Source: Bacilli bacterium
GTDB lineage: Bacteria; Bacillota_I; Bacilli_A; ML615J-28; CAG-313
Reading direction: 5' to 3'
NCBI GenBank assembly: GCA_045653225.1
Contig: JAZOLP010000062.1
Span: 908 to 64,907, forward strand
DNA length: 64,000 nt
How positions within the stretch are numbered: position 1 is the first letter of the stretch; each line of letters begins with the position of its first letter. Positions 4,212 through 60,628 of the stretch are shown piece by piece. The position numbers and the translations under genes are program-made. The notes beneath the pieces were generated by a model. It made no database searches. It was not told the origin of the DNA and saw nothing but the letters and a program-made list of their open reading frames with translations.

Positions 4212-5522
4212 GTGGCAGCAGAAAAATTTAAAATGTATTGCGATAAGTGCGGCCGCCTCAAAAATAGTGACAAATATTATTCCACAAATAATTTAGAAAA
4301 ATATCCAAAAGGCAAGGTCACCGTATGTAAAGATTGTATGACTATGCACATTGATAATTTTCAGCCTGAAACATATGTGTGGATCATGAAAGAGGTAGAT
4401 GTACCTTACGTTCCAGATGTGTGGAATAAAGTATTGTTAAGTTATAAAGATCAGCCGGACAAGCTGGTGGGGCCTACTATTATGGGTAGATATATGTCTC
4501 AAATGAAATTGAGCCAATATAAAAATAAGCGCTGGGCAGATACACAAACACTGTCAGAAGAAAGAAAAGCTAGTGCCCGCAGATCACTAAAAGCGCAAGG
4601 TTATTCAGAAGAAGAAATTGAGGAAGAAGTTAAAAAAATGAATATTCCTGAGTCTGCGCCTCCACCAGAAGAGAAAGAAACTTACTCAAGTTTTATGGCG
4701 CGAGAGCCTGATGTAGATATGGCTTCTGAAGTCGCAGCTTTGCAGAATATGATCACAGAGATGCGCGAACAGGCTCAGAAAGATGCGGAAGCCCAGGCAG
4801 AGTTAGATAGGATTGCGGATTTGACTAAACCATCCCTAGACCCGCCAAATCTCGAAGCTCCTGGACAAGTCGCAGCAGACCCTTATGGGCCAAGTTATTT
4901 TGAAGATACTTTAACAGAAGATGATAGAAGAATGTTATCTTTGAAATGGGGCAGACAGTATACTCCAGAAGAATGGGTTAGACTTGAACAGCTTTATGTT
5001 GATATGTTTAACTCTTTTGATATTCAGAACGCGGGACACGTGGATACTTTAAAATTAATTTGTAAAACTTCGTTAAAAACACACCAGCTTTTGGATATGG
5101 GCGATGTAGAAGGTGCAAAGAAAACACAGGCCATGTATGATTCTTTAATGAAATCTGGTAAGTTTACTGCGCAACAAAATAAAGCAGAGTCTGGAGACGA
5201 TGTTGACTCTGTTGGTGAATTAGTTGCAATGTGCGAAAAACAAGGTTTTATTCCAAGATATTGCACTGATATCCCGCAAGACAAAGTAGATAAAACTTTA
5301 GCAGATTTAAAGCAATATACTAAAACACTTATTACAGAAGAACTTAATCTTGGAAATCTTATTGAAAATGCGATTAGACAAATGCAGAAGCAAGATGAAT
5401 TTGAACAGAAGCTTGAAGATGATGAAGATATATTAGTTCCTACTGTTGATGAGTTAGAAGATGAAGACTATGAAGATTTCTATGATTTCCTCGAAGGAGA
5501 AGAGGAGGATGAAGATGAATAA
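4212..5522 (+). CDS. hypothetical protein with an N-terminal zinc ribbon and a strongly acidic C-terminus
   Basis: CDKCG...CKDC at the N-terminus; EDDEDILVPTVDELEDEDYEDFYDFLEGEEEDEDE tail; its stop overlaps the TerL start (translational coupling). Confidence 0.5.
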   Translation: MAAEKFKMYCDKCGRLKNSDKYYSTNNLEKYPKGKVTVCKDCMTMHIDNFQPETYVWIMKEVDVPYVPDVWNKVLLSYKDQPDKLVGPTIMGRYMSQMKLSQYKNKRWADTQTLSEERKASARRSLKAQGYSEEEIEEEVKKMNIPESAPPPEEKETYSSFMAREPDVDMASEVAALQNMITEMREQAQKDAEAQAELDRIADLTKPSLDPPNLEAPGQVAADPYGPSYFEDTLTEDDRRMLSLKWGRQYTPEEWVRLEQLYVDMFNSFDIQNAGHVDTLKLICKTSLKTHQLLDMGDVEGAKKTQAMYDSLMKSGKFTAQQNKAESGDDVDSVGELVAMCEKQGFIPRYCTDIPQDKVDKTLADLKQYTKTLITEELNLGNLIENAIRQMQKQDEFEQKLEDDEDILVPTVDELEDEDYEDFYDFLEGEEEDEDE

Positions 5523-7240
5523 TGGCTCTCAGCGATATATTACAAATTTCAGATAGTAAAAAAATAGGTGTTTCAGAAGAAAGAATTAAACCTATATTAC
5601 CAGTCATAAGAGACTATGTATCCTTCTGGCGAGAATACCCAGATATATTCGTAGACCATATGAGTGGCGGCCAGTTCAATTTATTCTTCTATCAGCGTGT
5701 GTTTATGCGCGGAGCCATGCGTCATAAGTATGTCTTCGCGACATTCCCTCGTGCGTTCTCAAAAAGTTTTTTAAGTATTATGCTTTTGATGATTAGGTGT
5801 ATTCTTTACCCTCGTGCGGCATTGTTTGTTACTTCTGGTAATAAAGAGCAATCTGCTAGTATTATTGCGGAAAAGGTAAATGAAATTTGCTTAAAAATTC
5901 CTGCTTTTGATCGAGAAATAGATTATAGCAAAGGTCAAAAAGGTACTCAGTTTAGAAGAGATAAGGTGCGTATCGCATTCAAAAATGGTTCTTATTTTGA
6001 TAATATTGCGGCCCGTGAAAGCTCCAGAGGTCAGCGTCGTCATGGCGGACTTGTAGAAGAATGTGTTGGTGTAGATGGGGAAATCCTATCTTCGGTAATT
6101 ATTCCTACAATGAACGTTGCGCGTCCTTGTATGGATGGTGTTGCAGTACCCGAGGAGACATTGAATAAGTCGCAAATTTATATCACAACCGCGGGTTGGA
6201 AGGGAACATATAGCTACGATAAACTTATCTCGTTTTTGGTGTGTTCAGTCCCGAAGCCGGATAAATATTTTGTAATGGGTGGTACTTATAAGATACCTGT
6301 TATGGAAAAATTGCTTGATGCAAGTTTTATCCAAGATATTCAGAATGAAGGAACTTTTAATGAAGCAGCCTTTGAAAGAGAATATTGTTCTCGTTGGTCT
6401 GGAACCGCGGAAAAGTCTTTCTTTAATGGTGAGGCTTTTGATAAATGTAGACAATTAAAGCAGCCAGAGTATGAAGCTAGCGGGCGCTCAATGAAAGGTT
6501 CATATTATGTGTTTAGTGCGGATATTGGACGTAAATCTGACGCATCTGTTGTTACAATTTTTAAAGTAACTCCGCAACCAACGGGACCTTCTTTAAAGTC
6601 TGTTGTTAATATAAAAACCTGGTCAGACATTCATATTGAAGATCAAATATTAGAATTTAAACGACTATATTTCTTATACAAACCTCGTGCGTTTGTAATT
6701 GATGCCAATGGTATCGGTATTAACTATGTTGACCTTTTGGTTAAAAGTCAAATAGACCCAGAGACGGGAGATGAATTCCCAGGATTTGGCGTAATCAATG
6801 ATAAAGATGGGGAGTATAAAAAATTCCTGTCAAATAGTACAATACGAGATGTCTTATATCTTGTAAAGGCAAACGCGCAATTCAACACAGAGATGTATTC
6901 TAATTTACAAGTTCAAATTAATTCTGGTAAAGTTAAATTTTTAACAGATGAAAGAGTTGCGAAAGCTAAGTTGCTAAATACGCGCAAAGGTGAAGCAATG
7001 TCTCCAGAAGAGAGAGAAAAATATCTTAGACCATTCACATTAACCTCAATTCTTAAAGAAGAAATGATGAATCTAACAGAAGAAAATGAAGGTCAAAATA
7101 TTAGACTTGTAAAAATTAATAAAAGAATTAAAAAAGATAAAGTGTCCAGTCTAGGATATGGACTTTATTATATAAAAACTCAAGAAGAAACAAAGAAGAA
7201 AAAGAAATTCAATGTTCGTGATTATATTAGAATGAATTAA
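5522..7240 (+). CDS. terminase large subunit (putative)
   Basis: 572 aa; a deviant Walker-A-like stretch FPRAFSKSF; a C-terminal RNaseH-like nuclease signature VIDANGIGINYVD; position upstream of the portal. Confidence 0.6.
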   Translation: MALSDILQISDSKKIGVSEERIKPILPVIRDYVSFWREYPDIFVDHMSGGQFNLFFYQRVFMRGAMRHKYVFATFPRAFSKSFLSIMLLMIRCILYPRAALFVTSGNKEQSASIIAEKVNEICLKIPAFDREIDYSKGQKGTQFRRDKVRIAFKNGSYFDNIAARESSRGQRRHGGLVEECVGVDGEILSSVIIPTMNVARPCMDGVAVPEETLNKSQIYITTAGWKGTYSYDKLISFLVCSVPKPDKYFVMGGTYKIPVMEKLLDASFIQDIQNEGTFNEAAFEREYCSRWSGTAEKSFFNGEAFDKCRQLKQPEYEASGRSMKGSYYVFSADIGRKSDASVVTIFKVTPQPTGPSLKSVVNIKTWSDIHIEDQILEFKRLYFLYKPRAFVIDANGIGINYVDLLVKSQIDPETGDEFPGFGVINDKDGEYKKFLSNSTIRDVLYLVKANAQFNTEMYSNLQVQINSGKVKFLTDERVAKAKLLNTRKGEAMSPEEREKYLRPFTLTSILKEEMMNLTEENEGQNIRLVKINKRIKKDKVSSLGYGLYYIKTQEETKKKKKFNVRDYIRMN

Positions 7241-7244
7241 GAAA

Positions 7245-7290
7245 AAAAATGGGCGAAATCGAGCAAACTATTTCGTCCATTTTTTAAATA
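7245..7290 (+). terminator. hairpin AATGGGCGAAA-loop-TTTCGTCCATT flanked by an A-tract and a T-tract (bidirectional-type)
   Basis: 11-bp stem with one G-U pair, followed by TTTTTT. Confidence 0.45.
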
Positions 7291-7315
7291 ATATTAGAAG
7301 ACTGGAGGAATTTTT

Positions 7316-7678
7316 ATGAAAGCTAGTAAAGGTGAAATAAAAATATGTGAAATATTAGAAATGAATGATATTCCATTTGTTGAAGAATATTCTTTCCAAG
7401 GCTTAGTTAGTACCAATGGTAGATTATTAGCTTTTGATTTCGCCGTTTTTGATGATGCAGGTGATTTAGATTTCTTAATTGAATTTCAAGGTAAACAACA
7501 CTATGAACCTGTAAGTAAATTTGGCGGAAAAAGAGGATTATTTCAACAACAACATAATGATAATTTAAAAAGAAGATTTTGTATGAAAAACAATATTAAA
7601 TTAATTGAAATTCCTTACACTGATTATAATTACATTACGTATGATTATATAATGAAAAAAGCAGGTTACTGTGATTGA
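7316..7678 (+). CDS. small Vsr/DUF559-like PD-(D/E)xK endonuclease-fold protein, a free-standing homing-endonuclease-like gene between terL and portal
   Basis: LAFDFAV...LIEFQGKQHY...NDNLKRRFCMKNNIKLIEIPY resembles the D...IExDGxxH...D..R..L...G..V.R pattern. Confidence 0.4.
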   Translation: MKASKGEIKICEILEMNDIPFVEEYSFQGLVSTNGRLLAFDFAVFDDAGDLDFLIEFQGKQHYEPVSKFGGKRGLFQQQHNDNLKRRFCMKNNIKLIEIPYTDYNYITYDYIMKKAGYCD

Positions 7679-9209
7679 GAGAGGAGGAAAATCTTTGGAA
7701 GATAGAGAAATGTATAACTTTTCCAAAATGCAAATTGCATCAAAGAAAATGTTAGATCCTTCTGTTGACTTAAATAGCTTTAAAAAGGTAAATTCTACAT
7801 ATGGTGACAAGACAACTATTATGAAAGCAATTGATCAAAGAAATTATTCAGAATTAAGAAAAATTTCTAGCTTTTACTATGAGGTTAGTGGTATATATCA
7901 AAGACTTTGTAGATACGCGGCTTTCTTATATAGGTATGATTGGTATGTAACTCCAAATACTCTTAAGAAAACAACAAAAGAATTAACAGAAAAGGTTAAA
8001 GGAAAAATTTATGATAACTTTTTTGAAGTTGTTGAGTTTTTGGACAATTCATCTTTAAAACAATTATGCGGCGATATCGCTTTAAAAGTTGTGCGCGATG
8101 GTGTTTACTATGGCTATATTTTAGATAACCAAGAGAAAATAGATTTACAAGCATTGCCGCCAGATTATTGCAGAACTCGTTTCTTTAAAGGTGGAGAACC
8201 AACAGTTGAATTTAATATGAAATATTTTGATGATGCATTTACTGATACTGCGTATAGAATGCAGATTATTAATATGTTTCCAAAAGATTTTAGGAAGGGA
8301 TATATTAAATTTAAAGAACAACAATTAAAAGCTGAATATATGGGAGATAGTGACGGATGGTATTTATTAGACACATCAAGAACTGTAAAATTTAGCTTTA
8401 ACAATATTGAATCTCCATTGTTTATAAATGTAATTCCCGCAATTATTGATTTGGCTGAAGCTCAAGAAATTGATAGAAAAAGAATGATGCAACAGTTAGT
8501 TAAATTGATTATTCAAGAGTTGCCTTTAGATAAAAATGGTGAGTTAATATTTGACCCAGATGAAGCTGCGGATTTGCACAGTGTTGTTGTTGATATGTTA
8601 AAACGCACAGTTGGAACCGATTTAGTTACAACATTTGCAAATATGAAAGCAATTGATTTATCAGATCGTTCTTCGTCAACTTCTATTGATGAATTAGCTA
8701 AAGTTGAGAGAGGAATATTTAATCAATCTGGTGTATCTAACAATTTGTTTAATACAGAAGGTAATACTTCTTTAGACAGAAGTATTTTAAATGACGAGGG
8801 TAGTGGCCGCAACTTACTATTACAGTTTGAGAATTTTTCAAACAAGGGTTTAAGATTGCGCTTCCCAGATAAGAAAAAATATGGTTTTAAAGCTGAATTT
8901 TTAGAAACAACACAATATAATTATAAAGATTTAGCTAAATTATATAAAGAGCAAACTCAGTTAGGTTTTTCTAAAGTATTACCACAAATTGCTCTTGGTC
9001 ATACTCAAATGGAAATTTTACAATCTATTACATTTGAAAATGATATTCTTGAATTATCAAAAATTATGATACCACCAATGATGAGCTCAACAATGAACGC
9101 AGAAACTTTAGCTCAGGTTCATGGAGACAAAAAGTCTGTTGGCGGACAAGAATTACCTGATAATGAAAAAAGTGATAAAACATTAGCAAATAAAGAAGCA
9201 ATGGGTTAA
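7671..9209 (+). CDS. portal protein (putative, assigned by position and size). The start is uncertain; GTG at 7671 and TTG at 7695 are both possible.
   Basis: About 500 aa immediately after the terminase; synteny. Confidence 0.45.
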   Translation: MIERGGKSLEDREMYNFSKMQIASKKMLDPSVDLNSFKKVNSTYGDKTTIMKAIDQRNYSELRKISSFYYEVSGIYQRLCRYAAFLYRYDWYVTPNTLKKTTKELTEKVKGKIYDNFFEVVEFLDNSSLKQLCGDIALKVVRDGVYYGYILDNQEKIDLQALPPDYCRTRFFKGGEPTVEFNMKYFDDAFTDTAYRMQIINMFPKDFRKGYIKFKEQQLKAEYMGDSDGWYLLDTSRTVKFSFNNIESPLFINVIPAIIDLAEAQEIDRKRMMQQLVKLIIQELPLDKNGELIFDPDEAADLHSVVVDMLKRTVGTDLVTTFANMKAIDLSDRSSSTSIDELAKVERGIFNQSGVSNNLFNTEGNTSLDRSILNDEGSGRNLLLQFENFSNKGLRLRFPDKKKYGFKAEFLETTQYNYKDLAKLYKEQTQLGFSKVLPQIALGHTQMEILQSITFENDILELSKIMIPPMMSSTMNAETLAQVHGDKKSVGGQELPDNEKSDKTLANKEAMG

Positions 9210-35223: not shown

Positions 35224-35266
35224 AAGGGAGTCTTATATTTTATATAAGACTCCCTATTTTTTTTTA
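35224..35266. terminator. bidirectional terminator between the convergent modules: GGGAGTCTTATAT-ttta-ATATAAGACTCCC with T-tracts on both strands
   Basis: Perfect 13-bp stem flanked by runs of T on each strand. Confidence 0.65.
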
Positions 35267-37624: not shown

Positions 37625-38107
37625 TTAATTTGTTTTCAAACATTCGATAATTCTTTGATTAGCGCTTCCTCGCCATTTCAAAGTTAAATCTTTCTGTTCT
37701 TCGACAAAAGGTCCGTCTATTAAATAATTAATTTTTTCTAATATATTTGTTATATAGATATCTTTTTTAGACATTAATTCTTCTATTGTATATCCTGTCC
37801 AGAGGAATATTTTTATATCTGGATGCGCGGCCCGCACCTTAGAAATTAAATGCGAGACTTCTTTGCGATTTCTCGGATGGAGGGGCTCTCCGCCAAGTAT
37901 ACTTAGGTTACGCTGAATTCCATTAGCAACAAGCGCGTTAAATATTTCTTTTTCAGTAGCCTTTGTATAAACATTTCCGCTCTGAAAATTCCACGCAGCT
38001 TTATTAAAACAACCTGGGCACTGGTGTTCACATCCGCTAACAAAGAGGGAAACGCATATACCCTCTCCGTTAACTATATCATTTGGATTGATAATCATAT
38101 AATTCAT
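37625..38107 (-). CDS. nrdG: anaerobic ribonucleotide reductase activating protein (radical SAM)
   Basis: 160 aa; GCEHQCPGCFN CxxxCxxC cluster; near-collinear with E. coli NrdG, including WTGY and LKWRGS. Confidence 0.8.
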   Translation of the reverse strand: MNYMIINPNDIVNGEGICVSLFVSGCEHQCPGCFNKAAWNFQSGNVYTKATEKEIFNALVANGIQRNLSILGGEPLHPRNRKEVSHLISKVRAAHPDIKIFLWTGYTIEELMSKKDIYITNILEKINYLIDGPFVEEQKDLTLKWRGSANQRIIECLKTN

Positions 38108-38469
38108 TTTACAAAATCCTCCATAAAATATAAAGTGTTACAATATAAATTACATACGGGTAAGATAATTTGCTCAATTATTTCATCTGGTATCGTATCA
38201 TCTATAATGCATGTTTTTGCACGTAAACCGCGAACACTTTCAGTTGCTTTGTAAACTCTATATGTTGTATTTCCAATTTTTACTATTGGAAACATACTAT
38301 GTTTTCTTAAATATTCTCCTTGAACTGCTTTTAGAAAAAAATCTAAATTTTCTAAAGAAGAATAAAAAATTATATTTGATAAACTTTGATTGCCACAAGG
38401 TACATTTAAAGTTTTTCTTGGAGTATTAAAATATTCAGTAATTTTTTTTCTATTTAAATATCTTTCCAT
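38104..38469 (-). CDS. hypothetical protein. Its ATG forms a TAATG junction with the stop of the nrdD 3-prime remnant, and its end overlaps nrdG (ATGA).
   Basis: ORF track; reading-frame junctions. Confidence 0.4.
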   Translation of the reverse strand: MERYLNRKKITEYFNTPRKTLNVPCGNQSLSNIIFYSSLENLDFFLKAVQGEYLRKHSMFPIVKIGNTTYRVYKATESVRGLRAKTCIIDDTIPDEIIEQIILPVCNLYCNTLYFMEDFVK

Positions 38470-38518
38470 TAGTTAGTCACCTTCCAATATTTTACCCTCT
38501 CTTTCACTTCTGTTTGTT

Positions 38519-38550
38519 TGCCTTTGTTAAATGCAGTTGTGTAATTTCCT
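38519..38550. repeat. right copy of a 30-nt direct repeat flanking the pflB insertion. It encodes a duplicated nrdD C-terminal remnant ...[26 protein letters not shown].
   Basis: cctttgttaaatgcagttgtgtaatttcct matches 40828-40857 at 28 of 30 positions. The minus-strand translation reproduces the NrdD tail. Confidence 0.7.
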
Positions 38551-38592
38551 ATTAAGCAACCATTGTTATAGACAATGATTATATAATTTATT

Positions 38593-40788
38593 TTACAGCC
38601 CTCCATGAAATGTTCTGCTTAATATTTCTTGCTTTTGTTCTTTTGTTAGAGAATTAAACAGAACTGCATATCCACTAATTCTAATTGTTAAGTTTGGATA
38701 GCTTTCAGGGTGTTCAATAGCATCTTCTAATGTTTCTTTGTTAAACACATTTACATTAATATGATGTCCATTTTTTTCAAAATATCCATCTAAAATTGTA
38801 CACAAATTATTCACTTGTTCTTTTGTATTTTTACCAAGCACAGAAGGAATAATTGTAAACGTATTTGAAATACCGTCATCACAGAACTGATAAGGTATTT
38901 TCGCAACTGAATTTAAAGAGGCAAGAGCGCCATTTTCTTCTCTTCCGTGGAGTGGGTTCGCGCCAGGAGCAAATGGAGCATATGCCTTTCTACCATCTGG
39001 AGTTGCGCCAGTTTTCTTTCCGTACATAATATTAGATGTTATTGTAAGTATAGATAAAGTTGGTTTTGCGTTTCTATAAAGCCATTGTGCTTCTAAGAAA
39101 TACTTAAAATAAGTAGCAACTTGAAGCCCTAACGCATCTGATTCATCTATATCATTACCATATTTAGGAAAATCGCCTTCAATTTTAAAATCAATAGCAA
39201 TTCCTTCTTCATTTCTTATCGGTATTACTTTTGCGAATTTAATACTTGCTAAACTATCGGACATTACTGAATAGCCTGCAATACCAAAAGCCATTAATCT
39301 ATCTTCTAAATGAGTATCGTGTAGAGCCATTTGAATTGATTCATACGCATACTTATCGTGCATAAAATGAATTACATTATTTGCATCTGAATAAATTCTT
39401 GCCAATTCGCGCAATACATATAAATAATTTTCATAAACTTCTTTAAAATCAAGAGGAGATTTTGTTAATTTTGGAACACCTTTAATTACTAATTCTCCTG
39501 TTCTTTCGTCTTTACCCTCGTTAATTGCATATAATAGAGCCTTGGCTAAATTACATCTTGCACCGAAGAATTGCATTTGTTTACCAGTTTTCATCGCAGA
39601 AACGCAACAAGCAATAGAATAATCATTTCCATATTTTGGTCTCATTAAATCATCATTCTCATATTGAATTGCACAAGTCTTAATAGACATTTCTGCACAA
39701 TATTTTTTAAAGTTTTCAGGTAGCTTTTCGCTCCATAAAACAGTTAAATTTGGTTCTGGTGCCGCACCTAAATGCTCTAGCGCGTGTAAAAATCTAAAAG
39801 AAGTTTTTGTTACTAATGATTGTTCATCGTTAAGCATACCACCTATTGCTTCAGTTACCCAAGTAGGATCTCCTGCGAATAATTCATCATAAGCAGAAGT
39901 GCGCAAATGACGAATAAATCTTAATTTTATAATAAACTGATCTATTAACTCTTGAGCTTCTTGCTCGGATATAATATCATTTTTTAAATCATTCTCAATA
40001 TAAATATCAATAAAAGTTGATACTCTGCCGAGAGAGGTTGCCGCGCCATTACTTTCTTTTGCACCAGCAAGATAAGCAAAATAAATTGCTTGAATTGCGT
40101 CTCTCGCGTTTGTAGCTGGCTTGTTAATCATAATACCATATCTGGCCGCCATTGTTGTTAATTCGCGCAATGCTTTAATTTGCATAGATACTTCTTCTCT
40201 TAATTGTATATCACGCATATCTAAATTTGCAAAATCTTTTTGCTTTTGTTCGATTAAATAATCTGTGCCATAAAGTGCTACTCTGCGATAGTCTCCTATG
40301 ATGCGGCCGCGTCCATAGGCATCTGGTAAGCCAGTTATTAACCCATTGTGTCTAGCTTTAAGAACTTCTTCTGAATAAGCATCAAATACTCCTTCATTAT
40401 GAGTTTTTCTAAATTGGTGAAACAAATCTAATTCATAAGGAGTTGTTAAATCGTGTTCTCGCAAACATTGCTTAACCATTCTTATTCCACCGTATGGGTT
40501 AATGATTCTTTTAAGTGGGGTATCTGTTTGAAGCCCCACTATTACTTCATTATCTTTATCTATATAGCCAGGTTGAAAATTATCTATTCCAGAAAACGCT
40601 TCTGTTTCAATATCTAATACTCCACCTGCTTCTTGTTCTTGTCTTAATAAATCTTTACATTTATCCCATAATTTTTGAGTTTTTTCTGTTATTGGTTGAA
40701 GAAAACTACTGTCTCCTAAATATTCAGTATAATTATTCTCAATAAATTTATTTACATTAATAGACATTGATTTTCCTCCTTTTCTCAA
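38593..40788 (-). CDS. pflB: pyruvate formate-lyase (formate C-acetyltransferase, glycyl radical enzyme)
   Basis: 731 aa, near-collinear with E. coli PflB. Active-site IACCVS is present, followed by [24 protein letters not shown]. The C-terminal glycyl-radical motif is [40 protein letters not shown] is also present. Confidence 0.85.
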
Positions 40789-41753
40789 AATTTATGTTTT
40801 ACTCTTAATTCTGTTTCTTGAACTTTTCCTTTATTAAATGCAGTTGTATAATTTCCTGTCAAATAACCTGTTACTCTTCTTAACTGTTGAATGTGTTCAC
40901 TACCGCACACAGGGCAGTATTTATTAAACTCGTCTAAATATCCACAATCCAAGCAAGCGTCATTTGGGACATTGATCGCGAAATAAGGTATATCCTTGTC
41001 CATAGCATAATTTATAATTTGCTCAATTGCAGATAAGTTATTTTTAACACTACCATCTAACTCTACATAAGTAATACATCCCGCACTTGAATAACCAGTT
41101 AATTGAGATTCTATGTCAATTTTATCAAATGGTGACATTTCTTTCCAAACTGGAACATGCATCGAATTAGTAAAGAATGCTTTATCACTAACATTTTCGA
41201 TTACTCCATATTTATCTTTAAATTTTTGCATAGCAGTAAAACAAAGATTTTCTGCAGGAGTATAATATACACCAAAGTTAAGTTTATACTCTTCTTTGAA
41301 TGAAGCGCATTTATCTTTAAATAATTGTTCAATTCTTTTAGCCAATACCATACCCTCTTCAGTTGTATGGTCTGTACCAATTAAAATTTGAAGTGTTTCC
41401 GCAAGACCAAGTTGCCCAATCGCAAGAGTTCCGTGTTTGAGTGCGCTTCTAATTCCCTCTTCTGGCACATAACCAGCCATTAAATTATTTTCATACATAA
41501 ATTTGGCTGAGTCTGGACTTTGCGAACAAATATATTCAAATCTTTCTAATAAGATGTCTTTTGCGTCGTGAATTTTTCTATTTAAAAGATTTAAGAATAC
41601 TACTTCTAAATCTTCTTCTTGTCCTTCTTCCTCACACATTTCTTTAGCCATCATAGCCAATGTAGGAAGAATAATTGTTACAGGACATATATTACCTCTA
41701 CCATCTTTAAGCTGGCCAAAACCATTAATATCCCAGCCGTTTGCCGTTCTGCA
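40785..41753 (-). CDS. nrdD: anaerobic ribonucleoside-triphosphate reductase, exon 2 (C-terminal part, beginning CRTANGWD)
   Basis: C-terminal Zn ribbon CLDCG...CPVCG and glycyl-radical motif RRVTGYLTG. The conserved MGCR motif is reconstituted only when joined to exon 1. Confidence 0.75.
40828..40857. repeat. left copy of the 30-nt direct repeat. It lies inside the intact nrdD 3-prime end and encodes [11 protein letters not shown].
   Basis: See the paired repeat at 38519-38550. Confidence 0.7.
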
Positions 41754-42575
41754 CATGTTAATCCGATGTTACCATCGGCACTGACTATATCTTCTCCAAT
41801 TATTTGGAGTCTTCCGCTTCGAATGTGCGCCTATCTCACATTCTACTCCCTTACATTCATCAGGGATAGTCGATACACTTTATTCATTATAATATTCAAA
41901 AATCCAAGTATTTTTATATGGACTTTTTACTTGTCCATTGAGTCGAGTGGTAATAGAAGTTTTTCCATTTTGTATTCCGCAGGCTCTGGCGCAACCAATT
42001 ACTGTATCGAAAATATCAACTTCATTTGTAATTATATTGGTTCGTTTGACTTTTTGAGCCATCGGGTTTTTCCCACCCAATTTTGTTTGTCTAATTTTTT
42101 CTTTAATTTCATTCATTTCTTCATCTGTTTTAGAAAGATATGTATTTCCACCGCATTTATAAATAGCGCTAGTTTCATTATATCCCTCTTTAACAGCATT
42201 ATAAAATTGAATCCAATATTGCTCTTTGAAATTTAATTCTTCTTGATTTTCTGCTGTATCAATTTCTTCTATAACAAAATTTTCTTTGCCGTATTTTCTA
42301 ATTGCTCGAGCAAAATGCGTATCAAGAATGTTATTTAATGCGTCATTTATATGACGATGAAATCTTGCTTCGATAGGCCTAATACTTTGACCTATATATA
42401 CTTTGTTGTTTTGAATATTTGTAATTTTATATATCCACATAGAAACTCCTTTCTATTGAATATTATAATGAATCTTAGCACGGTCTCATCCACGTGGGAC
42501 CTAACCGTTAGCCCGCAATCGCGGACACCCTCGGGCGAGGTTCAAAAGATTTTACATGGGCTGTAGTTTTCACTT
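41754..42575 (-). mobile_element. group I intron (822 nt) interrupting nrdD, carrying a GIY-YIG homing endonuclease ORF
   Basis: In-frame junction ...ATG GGT | intron | TGC AGA... The exon ends in U and the intron ends in G. GC-rich structured segments flank the ORF at both ends, with GACTA in the 3-prime part. There is an internal RBS for the endonuclease. The split falls exactly in the conserved NrdD MG|CR motif. Confidence 0.7.
41880..42440 (-). CDS. GIY-YIG homing endonuclease encoded within the intron
   Basis: WIYKITNIQNNKVYIGQS GIY-YIG motif; downstream R, H and N catalytic residues; basic C-terminal DNA-binding region. Confidence 0.75.
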   Translation of the reverse strand: MWIYKITNIQNNKVYIGQSIRPIEARFHRHINDALNNILDTHFARAIRKYGKENFVIEEIDTAENQEELNFKEQYWIQFYNAVKEGYNETSAIYKCGGNTYLSKTDEEMNEIKEKIRQTKLGGKNPMAQKVKRTNIITNEVDIFDTVIGCARACGIQNGKTSITTRLNGQVKSPYKNTWIFEYYNE

Positions 42576-43829
42576 ACCCATTGTGCTCATATATGTTCTA
42601 GGGTCGTCAGGATCGTATCCAGCATTGCCGCTCCAATCTACATTACAGTAATTTGGATATAATCTTGTTGCAGTTGATTTAAGAGCCAACTGATATAAAT
42701 CATAATTAGGGGTACCTGGTTTATCATTTACACCTTTCATATATTGAAAAATTTGACAAGGGAAAACAGATGTTCTATGCGATTTTCCAAGTCCTTCAAT
42801 TGTTCCTTCTAAAATAGCTTTTGTAACCATTCTTCCCTCAACTAGAGTACAAGTACCATAGTTAATTGAACTAAATGGAAGCTGATTTCCGCTACGAGAT
42901 TGTAAAGTATTAAGATTATGAAGCATACCTTCAACTGCTTGTTTTAATTCTCTTTCTGTCATATCCATAGCATATATATAAACATTTGGAAAATAATTTA
43001 TATAACATTCGTTAAATATAGAAGTTTCATTTGTTACGTAGTTAAATACTACTGCATCATACGGATTTTCAAACATTTCAATATATTTTAAACCATCCAC
43101 ATAGTGCTTATAGAAACTTTTTCTTACATACGGAACCATACTCCAATCCAAGTGAGAACAACTTACACCGCCAAACTGTTGTAAACTTTGTATCTGAAAA
43201 ATAACTGCCAATAGTTGAAATGCTGTATTGATTGAACTTGCGGGGCGCACATCTGTTTGTCTCGTATTGAAACCATTCGCAAGTAAATGATCAATAGGAA
43301 CAGTTAAACAGTTATGATTACCAAGTACATATTGATCTAGGTCGTGAGTATAAATTTTATTATTAAGATGATTATCTTTTGTTTTTTTGCTTACTAAATA
43401 ATTTAAAGCGTAGTCTTTATTCATTACGCTCGCGGCTTCGCCATTTCTTCCACCGAAAGATTTTTCATCTACATTTGCATTTTGATTTTTAATATCTTGT
43501 GCTTGAAGCTTTTTACCTATCTCTTTATGTAACGCGCTTTTCGCATTACGAGCAATACTTCTTTTTTCTCTATATATAATATAAGCTTTTGCAACATCTA
43601 ATCTTTCACTTTGCATAAGCTTTTGCTCAACTAAATCTTGTATTTTTTCTATATCCCAATCACTTACATAGTGAGTATATTCTTCATAGATTTCTTCTGC
43701 GATATCTTGAGCAATTTCCTCTGAATAAATTTGTCCATCTACTTCTTCAAAAGCTTTATTTATTGCTTTTATAATATTGTCTTTACAAAACTCTACAAGA
43801 GTTCCGTCTCTTTTAATTATCATCTTCAT
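42576..43829 (-). CDS. nrdD: anaerobic ribonucleoside-triphosphate reductase, exon 1 (N-terminal part with an ATP-cone). The ORF track runs on to a stop at 42570 inside the intron.
   Basis: IIKRDGTLVEFCKDNIIKAI ATP-cone; the exon ends ...YMSTMG. Confidence 0.75.
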
Positions 43830-59603: not shown

Positions 59604-60628
59604 TATCCGTTTCCTCCTGTAACATTATATCCCCAATTTTTTGAATCAAAGTATTCAATCCAAAATTTTTCTCTTTCGTTTAAATCTGCTCTCGCGCATT
59701 CTTCAATTAATTCAAAAGAGAAATTCTCTACACCTTTTTCCCAAAGGGCGGGATATAACTTATTATTAAGCGGGGTCTCTGCGTGTAATCCTCTCTTAAT
59801 GTGTTGTTTCCATCTATCTGCGAGAGAAACGCATTGCCCAATATAAATTCTTCCTGATTCGATGTCTTGAATTTTATAAATACCAGTAGTAGGTTTAGAA
59901 ATTTGTCTACCTATTAAATCATTAGTAGGCTTTTCAAAATAAGTTTTCCAAATAAGCTTATTTAAAACCTCTTTATTGTTTAACTTTTCTGATAATTCGC
60001 GCAACTTATTAATATCTTCTAAATCTTGTTGCGGAATTTGTAGCCTAAAAAATTCTGACTGGGTTCTTTTCTTTTCTTCGCGTTTCAAATCTTCTTGAGC
60101 AGCGGCCGCGAGTGTCTGATATTTATTTAACTCAATTTTTGCTTCGTTTATTTTATTTATTTCAAGATTCATATTGTTAGATAAAGCAATTGCAGCATCT
60201 TTCATTATACTTGAATATTCATTATAAAAATCATTTTTTGCATTTTCTAAATCATTTTTCAATTCTTCTTTTGCTTTTTCTATTTTTTCTTTTTCAAAAC
60301 TTATCTTGTCTTGATAGTTTTTATCTGCTTGTTGACATAATTGAGTTAAATGAATTATTTTCTGATCTAATATTTCAGATTCTGTTTCTTTTTTATCACA
60401 AGTATTTTTAATGTTAATTAAATGTTGTTCAGCTTCTAAATTATAAGCATCAAGCTCAGCTAAACGAATTTCTTTATAAGAAATTTCTTTATTTAATTCA
60501 TTTATTGTGCTTTTTGTGATTTTTAATTTTGGTCTTAATATTAAATAGGTTCCACCTATTCCCAGACCAATTCCAAATATTAGTAATATTATTGTCATAG
60601 ATAAAAAAATAAGAGGTAGTAGAAGCAC
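59603..60628 (-). CDS. membrane-anchored coiled-coil protein with a C-terminal GIY-YIG nuclease domain
   Basis: N-terminal TM segment LLPLIFLSMTIILLIFGIGLGIGGTYLIL; about 200 aa of coiled coil; C-terminal GIYKIQDIESGRIYIGQ...R...H...E...N. Confidence 0.6.
   Translation of the reverse strand: MLLLPLIFLSMTIILLIFGIGLGIGGTYLILRPKLKITKSTINELNKEISYKEIRLAELDAYNLEAEQHLINIKNTCDKKETESEILDQKIIHLTQLCQQADKNYQDKISFEKEKIEKAKEELKNDLENAKNDFYNEYSSIMKDAAIALSNNMNLEINKINEAKIELNKYQTLAAAAQEDLKREEKKRTQSEFFRLQIPQQDLEDINKLRELSEKLNNKEVLNKLIWKTYFEKPTNDLIGRQISKPTTGIYKIQDIESGRIYIGQCVSLADRWKQHIKRGLHAETPLNNKLYPALWEKGVENFSFELIEECARADLNEREKFWIEYFDSKNWGYNVTGGNG

Follow-up and report, generated by a model that had tools for sequence, protein, structure and literature searches.

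Pyruvate formate-lyase (PFL), known in Escherichia coli as PflB, yields one formate per pyruvate. In the class III ribonucleotide reductases (RNRs) that have been well studied, formate also serves as the hydrogen donor (PMC4390871). Reductases of the NrdD1 type (T4, E. coli, L. lactis) use formate, whereas those of the NrdD2 and NrdD3 types use thioredoxin or NrdH (PMC4390871, PMC4493059, PMC9176816). The nrdD gene of phage T4 has a group I intron, and the phage RNR gene survey that covers it does not mention PFL (PMC3653736). PFL (K00656) has been found on viral contigs from anaerobic digesters (PMC13644194), and lists of viral auxiliary genes include PFL or PflA (PMC13644194, PMC12713726). 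No description of a conserved nrdD-pfl-nrdG operon, or of a reductant-supply rationale for one, was found in the literature searched, within which such an operon looks undescribed. Here we report this arrangement in a 64,000-nucleotide (nt) stretch of phage DNA, referred to below as the window (contig JAZOLP010000062.1 of assembly GCA_045653225.1, positions 908 to 64,907). In the window, a complete PFL gene lies between nrdD and nrdG and is followed by a second, relic nrdD 3′ end. We think it probable that the locus as a whole is best explained by a conserved pfl operon that would supply formate, together with a recombination scar.

The PFL gene between nrdD and nrdG

The preliminary description of the window took an open reading frame (ORF) of 731 amino acids (aa) at 38593-40788 for a PflB homologue on the basis of its motifs, and this identity holds over the whole protein. 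(All coordinates without a locus name are window positions, and the genes from DNA polymerase III alpha to nrdG are on the minus strand.) The ATG at 40767 is likely the start, as it is the same start as in all homologues, and gives a gene at 38593..40767 encoding 724 aa; a AAAGGAGG ribosome-binding site is present upstream of this ATG, inside the 17-nt spacer after the nrdD stop. The protein matches the Pfam families PF02901 (PFL-like, E 2e-186) and PF01228 (Gly_radical, E 2e-37) and scores 1065.5 bits against the NCBIfam equivalog TIGR01255 (formate C-acetyltransferase; cut-off 994.2), while the other glycyl-radical enzyme models all score far below their own cut-offs. Its alignment with E. 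coli PflB (PDB 1h16) runs end to end (E 3e-257), with IACCVS in register with C418-C419 and RISGYAV in register with the radical G734. The Cys-Cys pair and the Gly that the preliminary description had set as a test are therefore in place, and the FFGARxNLAK motif and one further 11-residue motif are conserved between the two proteins. The catalytic residues of the phage enzyme, the Cys387-Cys388 dyad and the radical Gly699, are invariant across 30 PFLs, comprising that of the window and its 29 closest homologues, which come from a clade whose sampled contexts are all phage. Between the window and the related locus L005, the ratio of nonsynonymous to synonymous substitution (dN/dS) is 0.06 at a dS of 0.40. 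This low ratio, taken together with the invariant catalytic columns, indicates that pfl is functional and long resident in the phage lineage, where it is under purifying selection. Judged by its sequence, the phage PFL is a genuine and complete enzyme, predicted to convert pyruvate and CoA into acetyl-CoA and formate.

A protein search with the window PFL returned one 96%-identical cluster and then about 80 clusters at 65-74% identity and 716-741 aa among the top 120 database matches, on contigs of roughly 70-180 kb. In a quick neighbour-joining tree of these top 120 matches, built with no broad outgroup, the 716-741-aa group was separate from a 739-745-aa group, a few of the latter being named Clostridiales or Christensenellales. 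Branches spread over the group (P0001, P0002, P0003, P0022, P0027, P0060, P0075 and P0127) were sampled for genomic context. All were found on phage-like contigs, mostly of 25-182 kb (about 3 kb for P0001), and all showed one gene order, namely DNA polymerase III alpha, guanylate kinase, nrdD, PFL, no or one small ORF, nrdG, small ORFs, dUTPase and RuvC. PFL occupies this site in the loci L003, L004, L005/L006, L170, L171, L172, L173 and L197, and in L091, which came from a PFL-profile scan of metagenome contigs, the nrdD end is directly upstream of PFL. Among the matches listed, that scan gave mostly PFL loci without a flanking nrdD, some of them with a PflA-like gene downstream. In L005/L006, the PFL of which is 96% identical to that of the window at the aa level, an nrdD ending in YLSTDYRNFNKGKQAEVKARVKHKF and a stop codon is followed by PFL, an 89-aa ORF and nrdG; in L197, a 99.7-kb contig with the same PFL cluster as L005/L006, nrdG comes directly after PFL. 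The arrangement nrdD-pfl-(small orf)-nrdG is a conserved operon of the replication module of the whole phage clade.

The ORF layout of the window agrees with the preliminary description in placing PFL between an intact nrdD and an orf-nrdG pair, the small gene of which is named orf121 here. In addition to the 17-nt spacer between nrdD and PFL, the stop of the nrdD remnant overlaps the orf121 start as TAATG, orf121 and nrdG overlap as ATGA, and no promoter or terminator signals above background were found within the nrdD-pfl-nrdG block. This tight packing, with no excess of internal promoters or terminators, suggests co-expression. A near-identity DNA search of the phage collection found no close relative of the window. 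The full-length PFL matches in that collection are mostly short, unannotated or 'unverified' records that look bacterial in origin, and the E. coli pflB copies among its records are about 54% identical to the phage PFL by tblastn; the PHROGs include a full-length PFL family annotated 'unknown function'.

Proposed formate supply and activation of PFL

The spliced NrdD of the window has its two best structural matches in class III reductases of the PDB (8p23, E 1e-124; 9d3x, E 4e-86). Its match to T4 NrdD (E 3e-73) is far closer than that to T. maritima NrdD (E 1e-11). T4 NrdD is an NrdD1, while T. maritima NrdD belongs to NrdD2, a type defined by a third active-site Cys and a Glu, and is inactive with formate (PMC4493059). 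Given that the phage NrdD is so much nearer to the T4 enzyme, PFL would supply the reductant of NrdD. During infection, the phage PFL would use pyruvate and CoA of the host to form acetyl-CoA and formate, the formate would reduce NrdD, and the operon would in this way couple synthesis of deoxynucleoside triphosphates (dNTPs) to its own reductant supply; the acetyl-CoA could yield extra ATP. We lean, if only slightly, towards this role of PFL, in which it would provide the reductant for making viral dNTPs and acetyl-CoA and ATP would come as an additional gain. Independent support for a formate-supply role comes from the IMG/VR phages L083-L085 (= L175-L177), which carry an ORF with a formate/nitrite transporter domain (PF01226, E 1e-24; 7010-7486 in L083) in the nrdD-nrdG slot, where an ART-PolyVal ORF is also found.

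Several observations weigh against this role. The NrdD1 type of the phage NrdD is judged from overall sequence similarity. The transporter ORF of L083-L085 is short (158 aa, covering 35-206 of a profile of 240) and may be a fragment. PFL is absent from 80 IMG/VR loci and 19 loci of genomes or metagenome-assembled genomes (MAGs) in which the C-terminal half of NrdD is 69-81% identical, indicating that it is dispensable for nrdD-nrdG operons of this kind. The 19 loci come from Clostridia, Lachnospiraceae, Oscillospiraceae, a Hominimerdicola aceti isolate and others, and the PFL-less relatives suggest that PFL is the mark of a single sub-lineage within a broader group of phages, the hosts of which are probably Clostridia. 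Moreover, a CxxxCxxC scan, tblastn and NCBIfam models revealed no PflA or second radical-SAM activase in the 64-kb window, so PFL activity would depend on an activase other than a window-encoded PflA; this lack concerns the activation of the enzyme and leaves its family assignment untouched.

The activase that the window does encode, NrdG (37625..38107), scores 178 bits against TIGR02491 (cut-off 126) and 22 bits against the PflA model TIGR02493 (cut-off 232), and has the only CxxxCxxC motif among window ORFs of at least 100 aa. PFL would be activated either by host PflA or by phage NrdG. It has been our concern whether NrdG alone might activate both NrdD and PFL, with the formate of PFL consumed directly by NrdD as a coupled unit. 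The lack of PflA in the window, the constant position of pfl between nrdD and nrdG and the like radical loops of PFL and NrdD (both R-V/I-S/T-G-Y) are compatible with such an arrangement, which we nevertheless consider doubtful. The nrdG allele does not track the presence of PFL, as the NrdG of the PFL-less L007 is closer to that of the window than are those of L003 and L004, which have PFL. If NrdG did activate both enzymes, viral dNTP synthesis would be independent of host PflA and of the host formate pool.

The main rival to a formate-supply function is a generic fermentation role, in which PFL would be a general energy gene (acetyl-CoA, ATP, redox) and the nrdD-nrdG slot a mere insertion hot spot. 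In relatives the slot holds HNH, GIY-YIG, LAGLIDADG and ART-like genes, many relatives are without PFL, and the auxiliary-gene list of an anaerobic-digester virome includes PFL with a fermentation rationale (PMC13644194). A hot spot does not sit easily, however, with a position that is strictly conserved among PFLs 65-74% identical and tightly spaced from nrdD for translation, with the formate-transporter domain gene in the same slot of other phages, or with formate being the known reductant of NrdD1 (PMC4390871), and we regard the generic role as unlikely, though it must be reckoned with. The protein might also be merely PFL-like and either act on another substrate, such as the 2-ketobutyrate of TdcE, or donate a glycyl-radical domain as GrcA and T4 Y06I do. 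Most of 1592 phage records were matched by the C-terminal 80 residues of PFL only, T4-like phages have short GrcA-like proteins, and phrog_1209 and the GrcA models match the PFL C-terminus. The window protein, in contrast, has the full length of the enzyme (724 aa), scores above the PFL equivalog cut-off where the other glycyl-radical models stay far below theirs, and shares the Cys-Cys dyad, the radical Gly and the surrounding motifs with E. coli PflB, all of which makes another substrate or a donor function very improbable. Even a TdcE-like activity would leave the formate logic unchanged, since formate is a product of both PFL and its close paralogue TdcE.

The second nrdD tail and the mosaic structure of the locus

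A second NrdD C-terminus after the PFL stop, overlapping the next gene, and a 30-nt repeat with two mismatches were noted in the preliminary description, and both are real. The resident nrdD ends at 40785. The second tail (38469..38566) is separated from the PFL stop by a 26-nt junction spacer (38567..38592) and ends at 38469, which is also the end of a 45-aa ORF (38606-38469), in the overlap with the orf121 ATG. The repeat aligns at an offset of 2307 nt, either as 30 nt with 2 mismatches or as 33 nt with 3 (40856-40824, within the codons of the resident nrdD, versus 38549-38517), and is flanked by weaker homology, which extends for about 15 nt on the upstream and about 50 nt on the downstream side. 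It is present at these two window sites only, with 0 matches in 100 dinucleotide-preserving shuffles. The 97-nt remnant shows 87% identity to the nrdD tail of L007, 85% to that of L009 and 70% (gapped) to the resident tail. By these values it is the relic of an allele of L007 type, and not the duplicate of the resident gene end that had been supposed. On this comparison the 30-nt repeat represents the most conserved tail codons (11 residues) of two diverged alleles in the sub-lineage. In keeping with a dead fragment, the remnant has GCLIG where GYLTG is otherwise invariant; this change, an AT insertion and an ACTA insertion are private to it relative to L007, L008 and L009. Its 3′ end still supplies the ribosome-binding site of orf121. 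The second tail was found in the window only, one of 11 loci with PFL. The uninterrupted nrdD-orf-nrdG arrangement that the preliminary description had proposed to look for does exist, in L007 and L009, where PFL is absent and an intact nrdD runs directly into orf121 and nrdG. Relative to these two loci, the window looks like a 2.3-kb insertion of nrdD tail plus PFL near the radical-Gly codon.

Sliding identity of the window versus L197, L005 and L007 revealed what is, at the sequence level, a fine mosaic of PFL-bearing and PFL-less lineages. The 3′ part of nrdD and PFL (41255-38593) are 90-93% identical to L197/L005, while the backbone upstream of 41256 is about 79% identical to L197. The remnant, orf121 and the first approximately 60 nt of nrdG (38566 to about 38040) are about 90% identical to L007. 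The rest of nrdG and the next ORF (about 38040-37270) return to 93-98% identity to L197 versus 53-80% to L007, and the downstream genes (37270-35200) show 85-98% to L007 versus 50-80% to L197. These profiles firmly indicate that the junction 3′ of pfl joins DNA of a PFL-bearing parent to the nrdD tail of a PFL-less parent, and, as the two parents are without shared homology at that point, the join was illegitimate. We propose that the scar arose when a genome with PFL recombined with a relative that lacks the gene and has nrdD abutting orf121. One crossover, in the 5′ part of nrdG, would have been homologous; the other would have been illegitimate and would have linked the nrdD tail to the sequence immediately 3′ of pfl.

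The nrdD gene itself is split, a detail beyond the preliminary description, by an 822-nt interruption (42575-41754) that separates STMG|CRT at the thiyl-Cys motif in frame. Exon 1 (42576..43829), ending in YMSTMG, encodes the ATP-cone and the N-terminal part of the reductase (Pfam ATP-cone and NRDD), and exon 2 (40785..41753; Pfam NRDD and Gly_radical) is intact through the stop and carries the radical-Gly motif; as ORFs, the two reading frames extend over 43829-42570 and 41756-40785. Between them lies a GIY-YIG homing endonuclease ORF (42440-41880) that scores 73.7 bits against TIGR01453, 'group I intron endonuclease' (cut-off 56). The spliced NrdD of 740 aa can be aligned from end to end with PDB 8p23, straight across the TMG|CRT junction, including the motifs ATMGCRT, CLDCGY...CPxCGS (the C-terminal Zn-ribbon) and RxTGYL, and is matched by the Pfam and NCBIfam NrdD models. 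At the splice junction, U is the last exon base and G the last intron base. With Rfam, neither the gathering threshold nor a limit of E 10 gave a group I intron match in the window or its relatives, a weak negative in that a covariance model interrupted by an ORF may escape detection. The interruption (41754..42575) is a probable group I intron with a homing endonuclease. A second GIY-YIG homologue of the window (59609-59881, minus strand) is 33% identical to the intron endonuclease over 99 residues (tblastn E 4e-10).

Insertions recur at defined sites of nrdD in this phage group. The TMG|CRT site is empty in L003, L004 and others, holds an endonuclease 55-78% identical to that of the window in L034, L087 and L178, and holds an intein in L083 (nrdD of 1031 aa). 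Introns also recur at a second site, immediately 3′ of the radical-Gly codon (RRVTG|YLTG, GGT|TAT), which is occupied in L008 (1-143), L076-L079 (about 6891-7653), L170 (about 4675-5910) and L171 (about 4705-5905). The 3′ ends of these introns have GGATAACA(A/T)AAT(T)G in common, and in L170 and L171 the intron contains a LAGLIDADG ORF and is followed by a 25-codon second exon and then at once by PFL. Other occupied sites are around NrdD residues 224 and 307-317 and at YTP|AENL of L197, and the nrdD-nrdG slot of relatives often holds HNH or GIY-YIG genes. The element at YTP|AENL of L197 (L197:6543-7515) interrupts nrdD and contains an HNH ORF; the 90-93% tract of the window begins at this HNH site, which, from the change of identity there, looks like a co-conversion boundary. 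The resident nrdD tail of the window also contains a local patch (40810-40875) that is 63% identical to L197/L005 (STDYRNF...) within a tract of 85-95%. The first 41 nt of the patch show 1 mismatch versus L009, and its QETELR part resembles L033, a pattern suggestive of several rounds of short-tract conversion immediately 3′ of the Gly-codon site.

The homology of the remnant to nrdD starts 3-10 nt upstream of the GGT|TAT site, the range reflecting the placement of a 2-nt indel. That the junction falls within about 10 nt of the recurrent intron site after the radical-Gly codon points to an endonuclease break as a plausible trigger of the recombination, and a coincidence of junction and intron site is expected by chance in a few percent of cases. 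A homing endonuclease may have made a double-strand break at the Gly-codon site of an L007-type genome, and this break may have been repaired off a PFL-bearing co-infecting genome that was non-collinear downstream of the 75-nt second exon; such a repair would give precisely the arrangement observed in the window. From the position of the junction, we put forward such a break followed by illegitimate repair tentatively, as an origin that is quite possible but for which the chances are somewhat short of even.

Not all observations favour a recombination scar of this form. Two L007-type patches in an L197-type genome fit the mosaic as well as the reverse does, leaving the order of events ambiguous. 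The 26-nt junction spacer has about equal matches to three different sources: it resembles the 5′ end of the 89-aa ORF (orf89) of L005 (13/16 matches, not significant, as 262 of 2000 shuffles scored as high) and also the 3′ end of the Gly-site intron (L008, L170 and L171) and the end of nrdD exon 1. The PFL-remnant-orf121 junction is known from a single assembly, the exact junction being absent from IMG/VR and the exact orf121 protein from the contig index. The preliminary description had read the locus in another way, as a 2.3-kb pflB cassette newly inserted into the last codons of its own nrdD, with an approximately 30-nt target duplicated and a replacement gene end carried along. Set against L007/L009, the window does have the appearance of an insertion at the nrdD tail, and to that extent the idea stands as one of two readings, the other being the entry of an L007-type patch of nrdD tail and orf121 into a PFL-bearing genome, which the mosaic fits equally well; the remnant retains the frame, the stop codon and the TAATG overlap with orf121, and the repeat has no third copy in the window and greatly exceeds chance expectation. 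PFL is, however, no one-off arrival but is found at this position in every sampled member of the clade, and pflB stands there free of any remnant in L003, L004, L005/6, L091, L170-173 and L197, including the closest PFL relatives (L197 and L005/L006). The two copies are alleles, the remnant having the lower identity to the resident tail and near-identity being limited to 30-33 nt; PFL and nrdG are 90-98% identical to L197/L005 while the remnant and orf121 are L007-like; and no integrase, transposase or endonuclease gene is present within 38593-40860. A new cassette insertion is thus improbable. Least credible of all is an assembly chimera of co-occurring strains with and without PFL. Both parental types do occur in the same kinds of metagenomes, the exact junction is in no other contig, and the 30-nt shared stretch could mislead an assembler. 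But a chimera at the repeat would join nrdD to orf121 directly or lose PFL, it would not put an nrdD tail 26 nt past the PFL stop, where the parents share no sequence, and the private substitutions of the remnant are absent from L007, L008 and L009. In the recombination reading, which we retain, the second nrdD tail itself is ordinary phage mosaicism, though instructive.

Neighbouring genes and comparison with known systems

The window is phage DNA, as the preliminary description had recognized: it encodes a terminase, a portal protein and a YorL-like DNA polymerase III alpha (48344-44466) with 39% identity to YorL of SPbeta-like Bacillus phages, and a 2382-aa ORF within the structural-gene block is presumably the tape-measure protein. 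The phage is large and distantly SPbeta-like, and its host is probably to be found among gut Clostridia, going by the MAG labels of relatives. The polymerase gene is followed by guanylate kinase (gmk, 44485-43895) and the nrdD-pfl-nrdG block, and downstream of nrdG, in transcription order, come three small ORFs, dUTPase and a RuvC-like gene. A bidirectional terminator-like site at 35225-35255, made up of a perfect 14-bp hairpin and of T-runs on the two strands, ends this minus-strand replication and nucleotide-metabolism block at the point where plus-strand genes begin.

The product of orf121 (38104..38469; 121 aa) is a conserved protein with three homologous clusters only (P0121-P0123, 89-93% identity). 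It is 40% identical (E 2e-16) to orf89, which lies between PFL and nrdG in L005/L006 (L005:2367-2636), and the two have the motif VRGxRA...IDD in common; in L172, the same place is taken by a 142-aa ORF (8174-8602). The dN/dS of orf121 versus L007 is 0.085, indicating purifying selection. No Pfam, PHROG or NCBIfam match was found for it, and its AlphaFold model has a mean pLDDT of 50. In the IMG/VR relatives L021, L025 and L034, the nrdD frames (about 4720-6990) contain many in-frame TAG codons, one of which stands in place of a conserved Gln; the nrdD of L021 has 9 TAGs and no other stop codon. These codons suggest TAG-to-Gln recoding in part of the phage group. The window reads cleanly in the standard code.

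Among described enzymes, the phage PFL is closest in kind to E. coli PflB (PDB 1h16/2pfl), with which it shares family, length, the Cys-Cys dyad, R(V/I)SGYAV and the aligned motifs. It differs from PflB in lying between nrdD and nrdG and not in a focA-pflB-pflA unit, in having no pflA with it in the 64-kb window, and in belonging to a separate clade of 716-741 aa, all sampled members of which are phage-borne. This setting raises a question of activase specificity, NrdG or PflA. With the nrdD-nrdG genes of T4, the locus shares a phage class III reductase and its activase, a homing-endonuclease intron in nrdD and a link to PFL chemistry. The T4-like phages, however, have only a domain of about 80-120 aa corresponding to the PFL C-terminus (matches to query 640-720; phrog_1209), whereas the window clade has the entire enzyme. 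The T4 protein Y06I reportedly was placed by Wagner et al. in 2001 in the GrcA-like, autonomous glycyl-radical cofactor family, and a GrcA-like domain can at most repair the PFL of the host.

As a host-derived enzyme under purifying selection in a phage, PFL resembles the viral auxiliary metabolic genes for nucleotide synthesis, and we place the PFL of nrdD-pfl-nrdG operons among the auxiliary metabolic genes serving this synthesis. Previous reports of PFL in virome surveys differ in being catalogue entries without gene context. If the proposed role is true, the gene would be an auxiliary gene chosen for chemical reasons, bringing together a formate maker and a formate spender, and would tie viral DNA synthesis to the central fermentation of strictly anaerobic gut bacteria. 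The scar, for its part, recalls the homing-endonuclease mosaicism of phage RNR genes in T-even phages, SPbeta and Twort: nrdD of the window group has intron, intein and endonuclease sites, identity tracts switch at insertion sites, and the boundary of the remnant is at an intron site. It differs from these cases in that the window shows no clean homing but a non-collinear repair that left a 97-nt relic of a gene end. The remnant may thus provide a clean natural example of how a cargo gene can pass from phage to phage by way of a nearby homing-endonuclease hot spot in an RNR gene, if an endonuclease did start the exchange.

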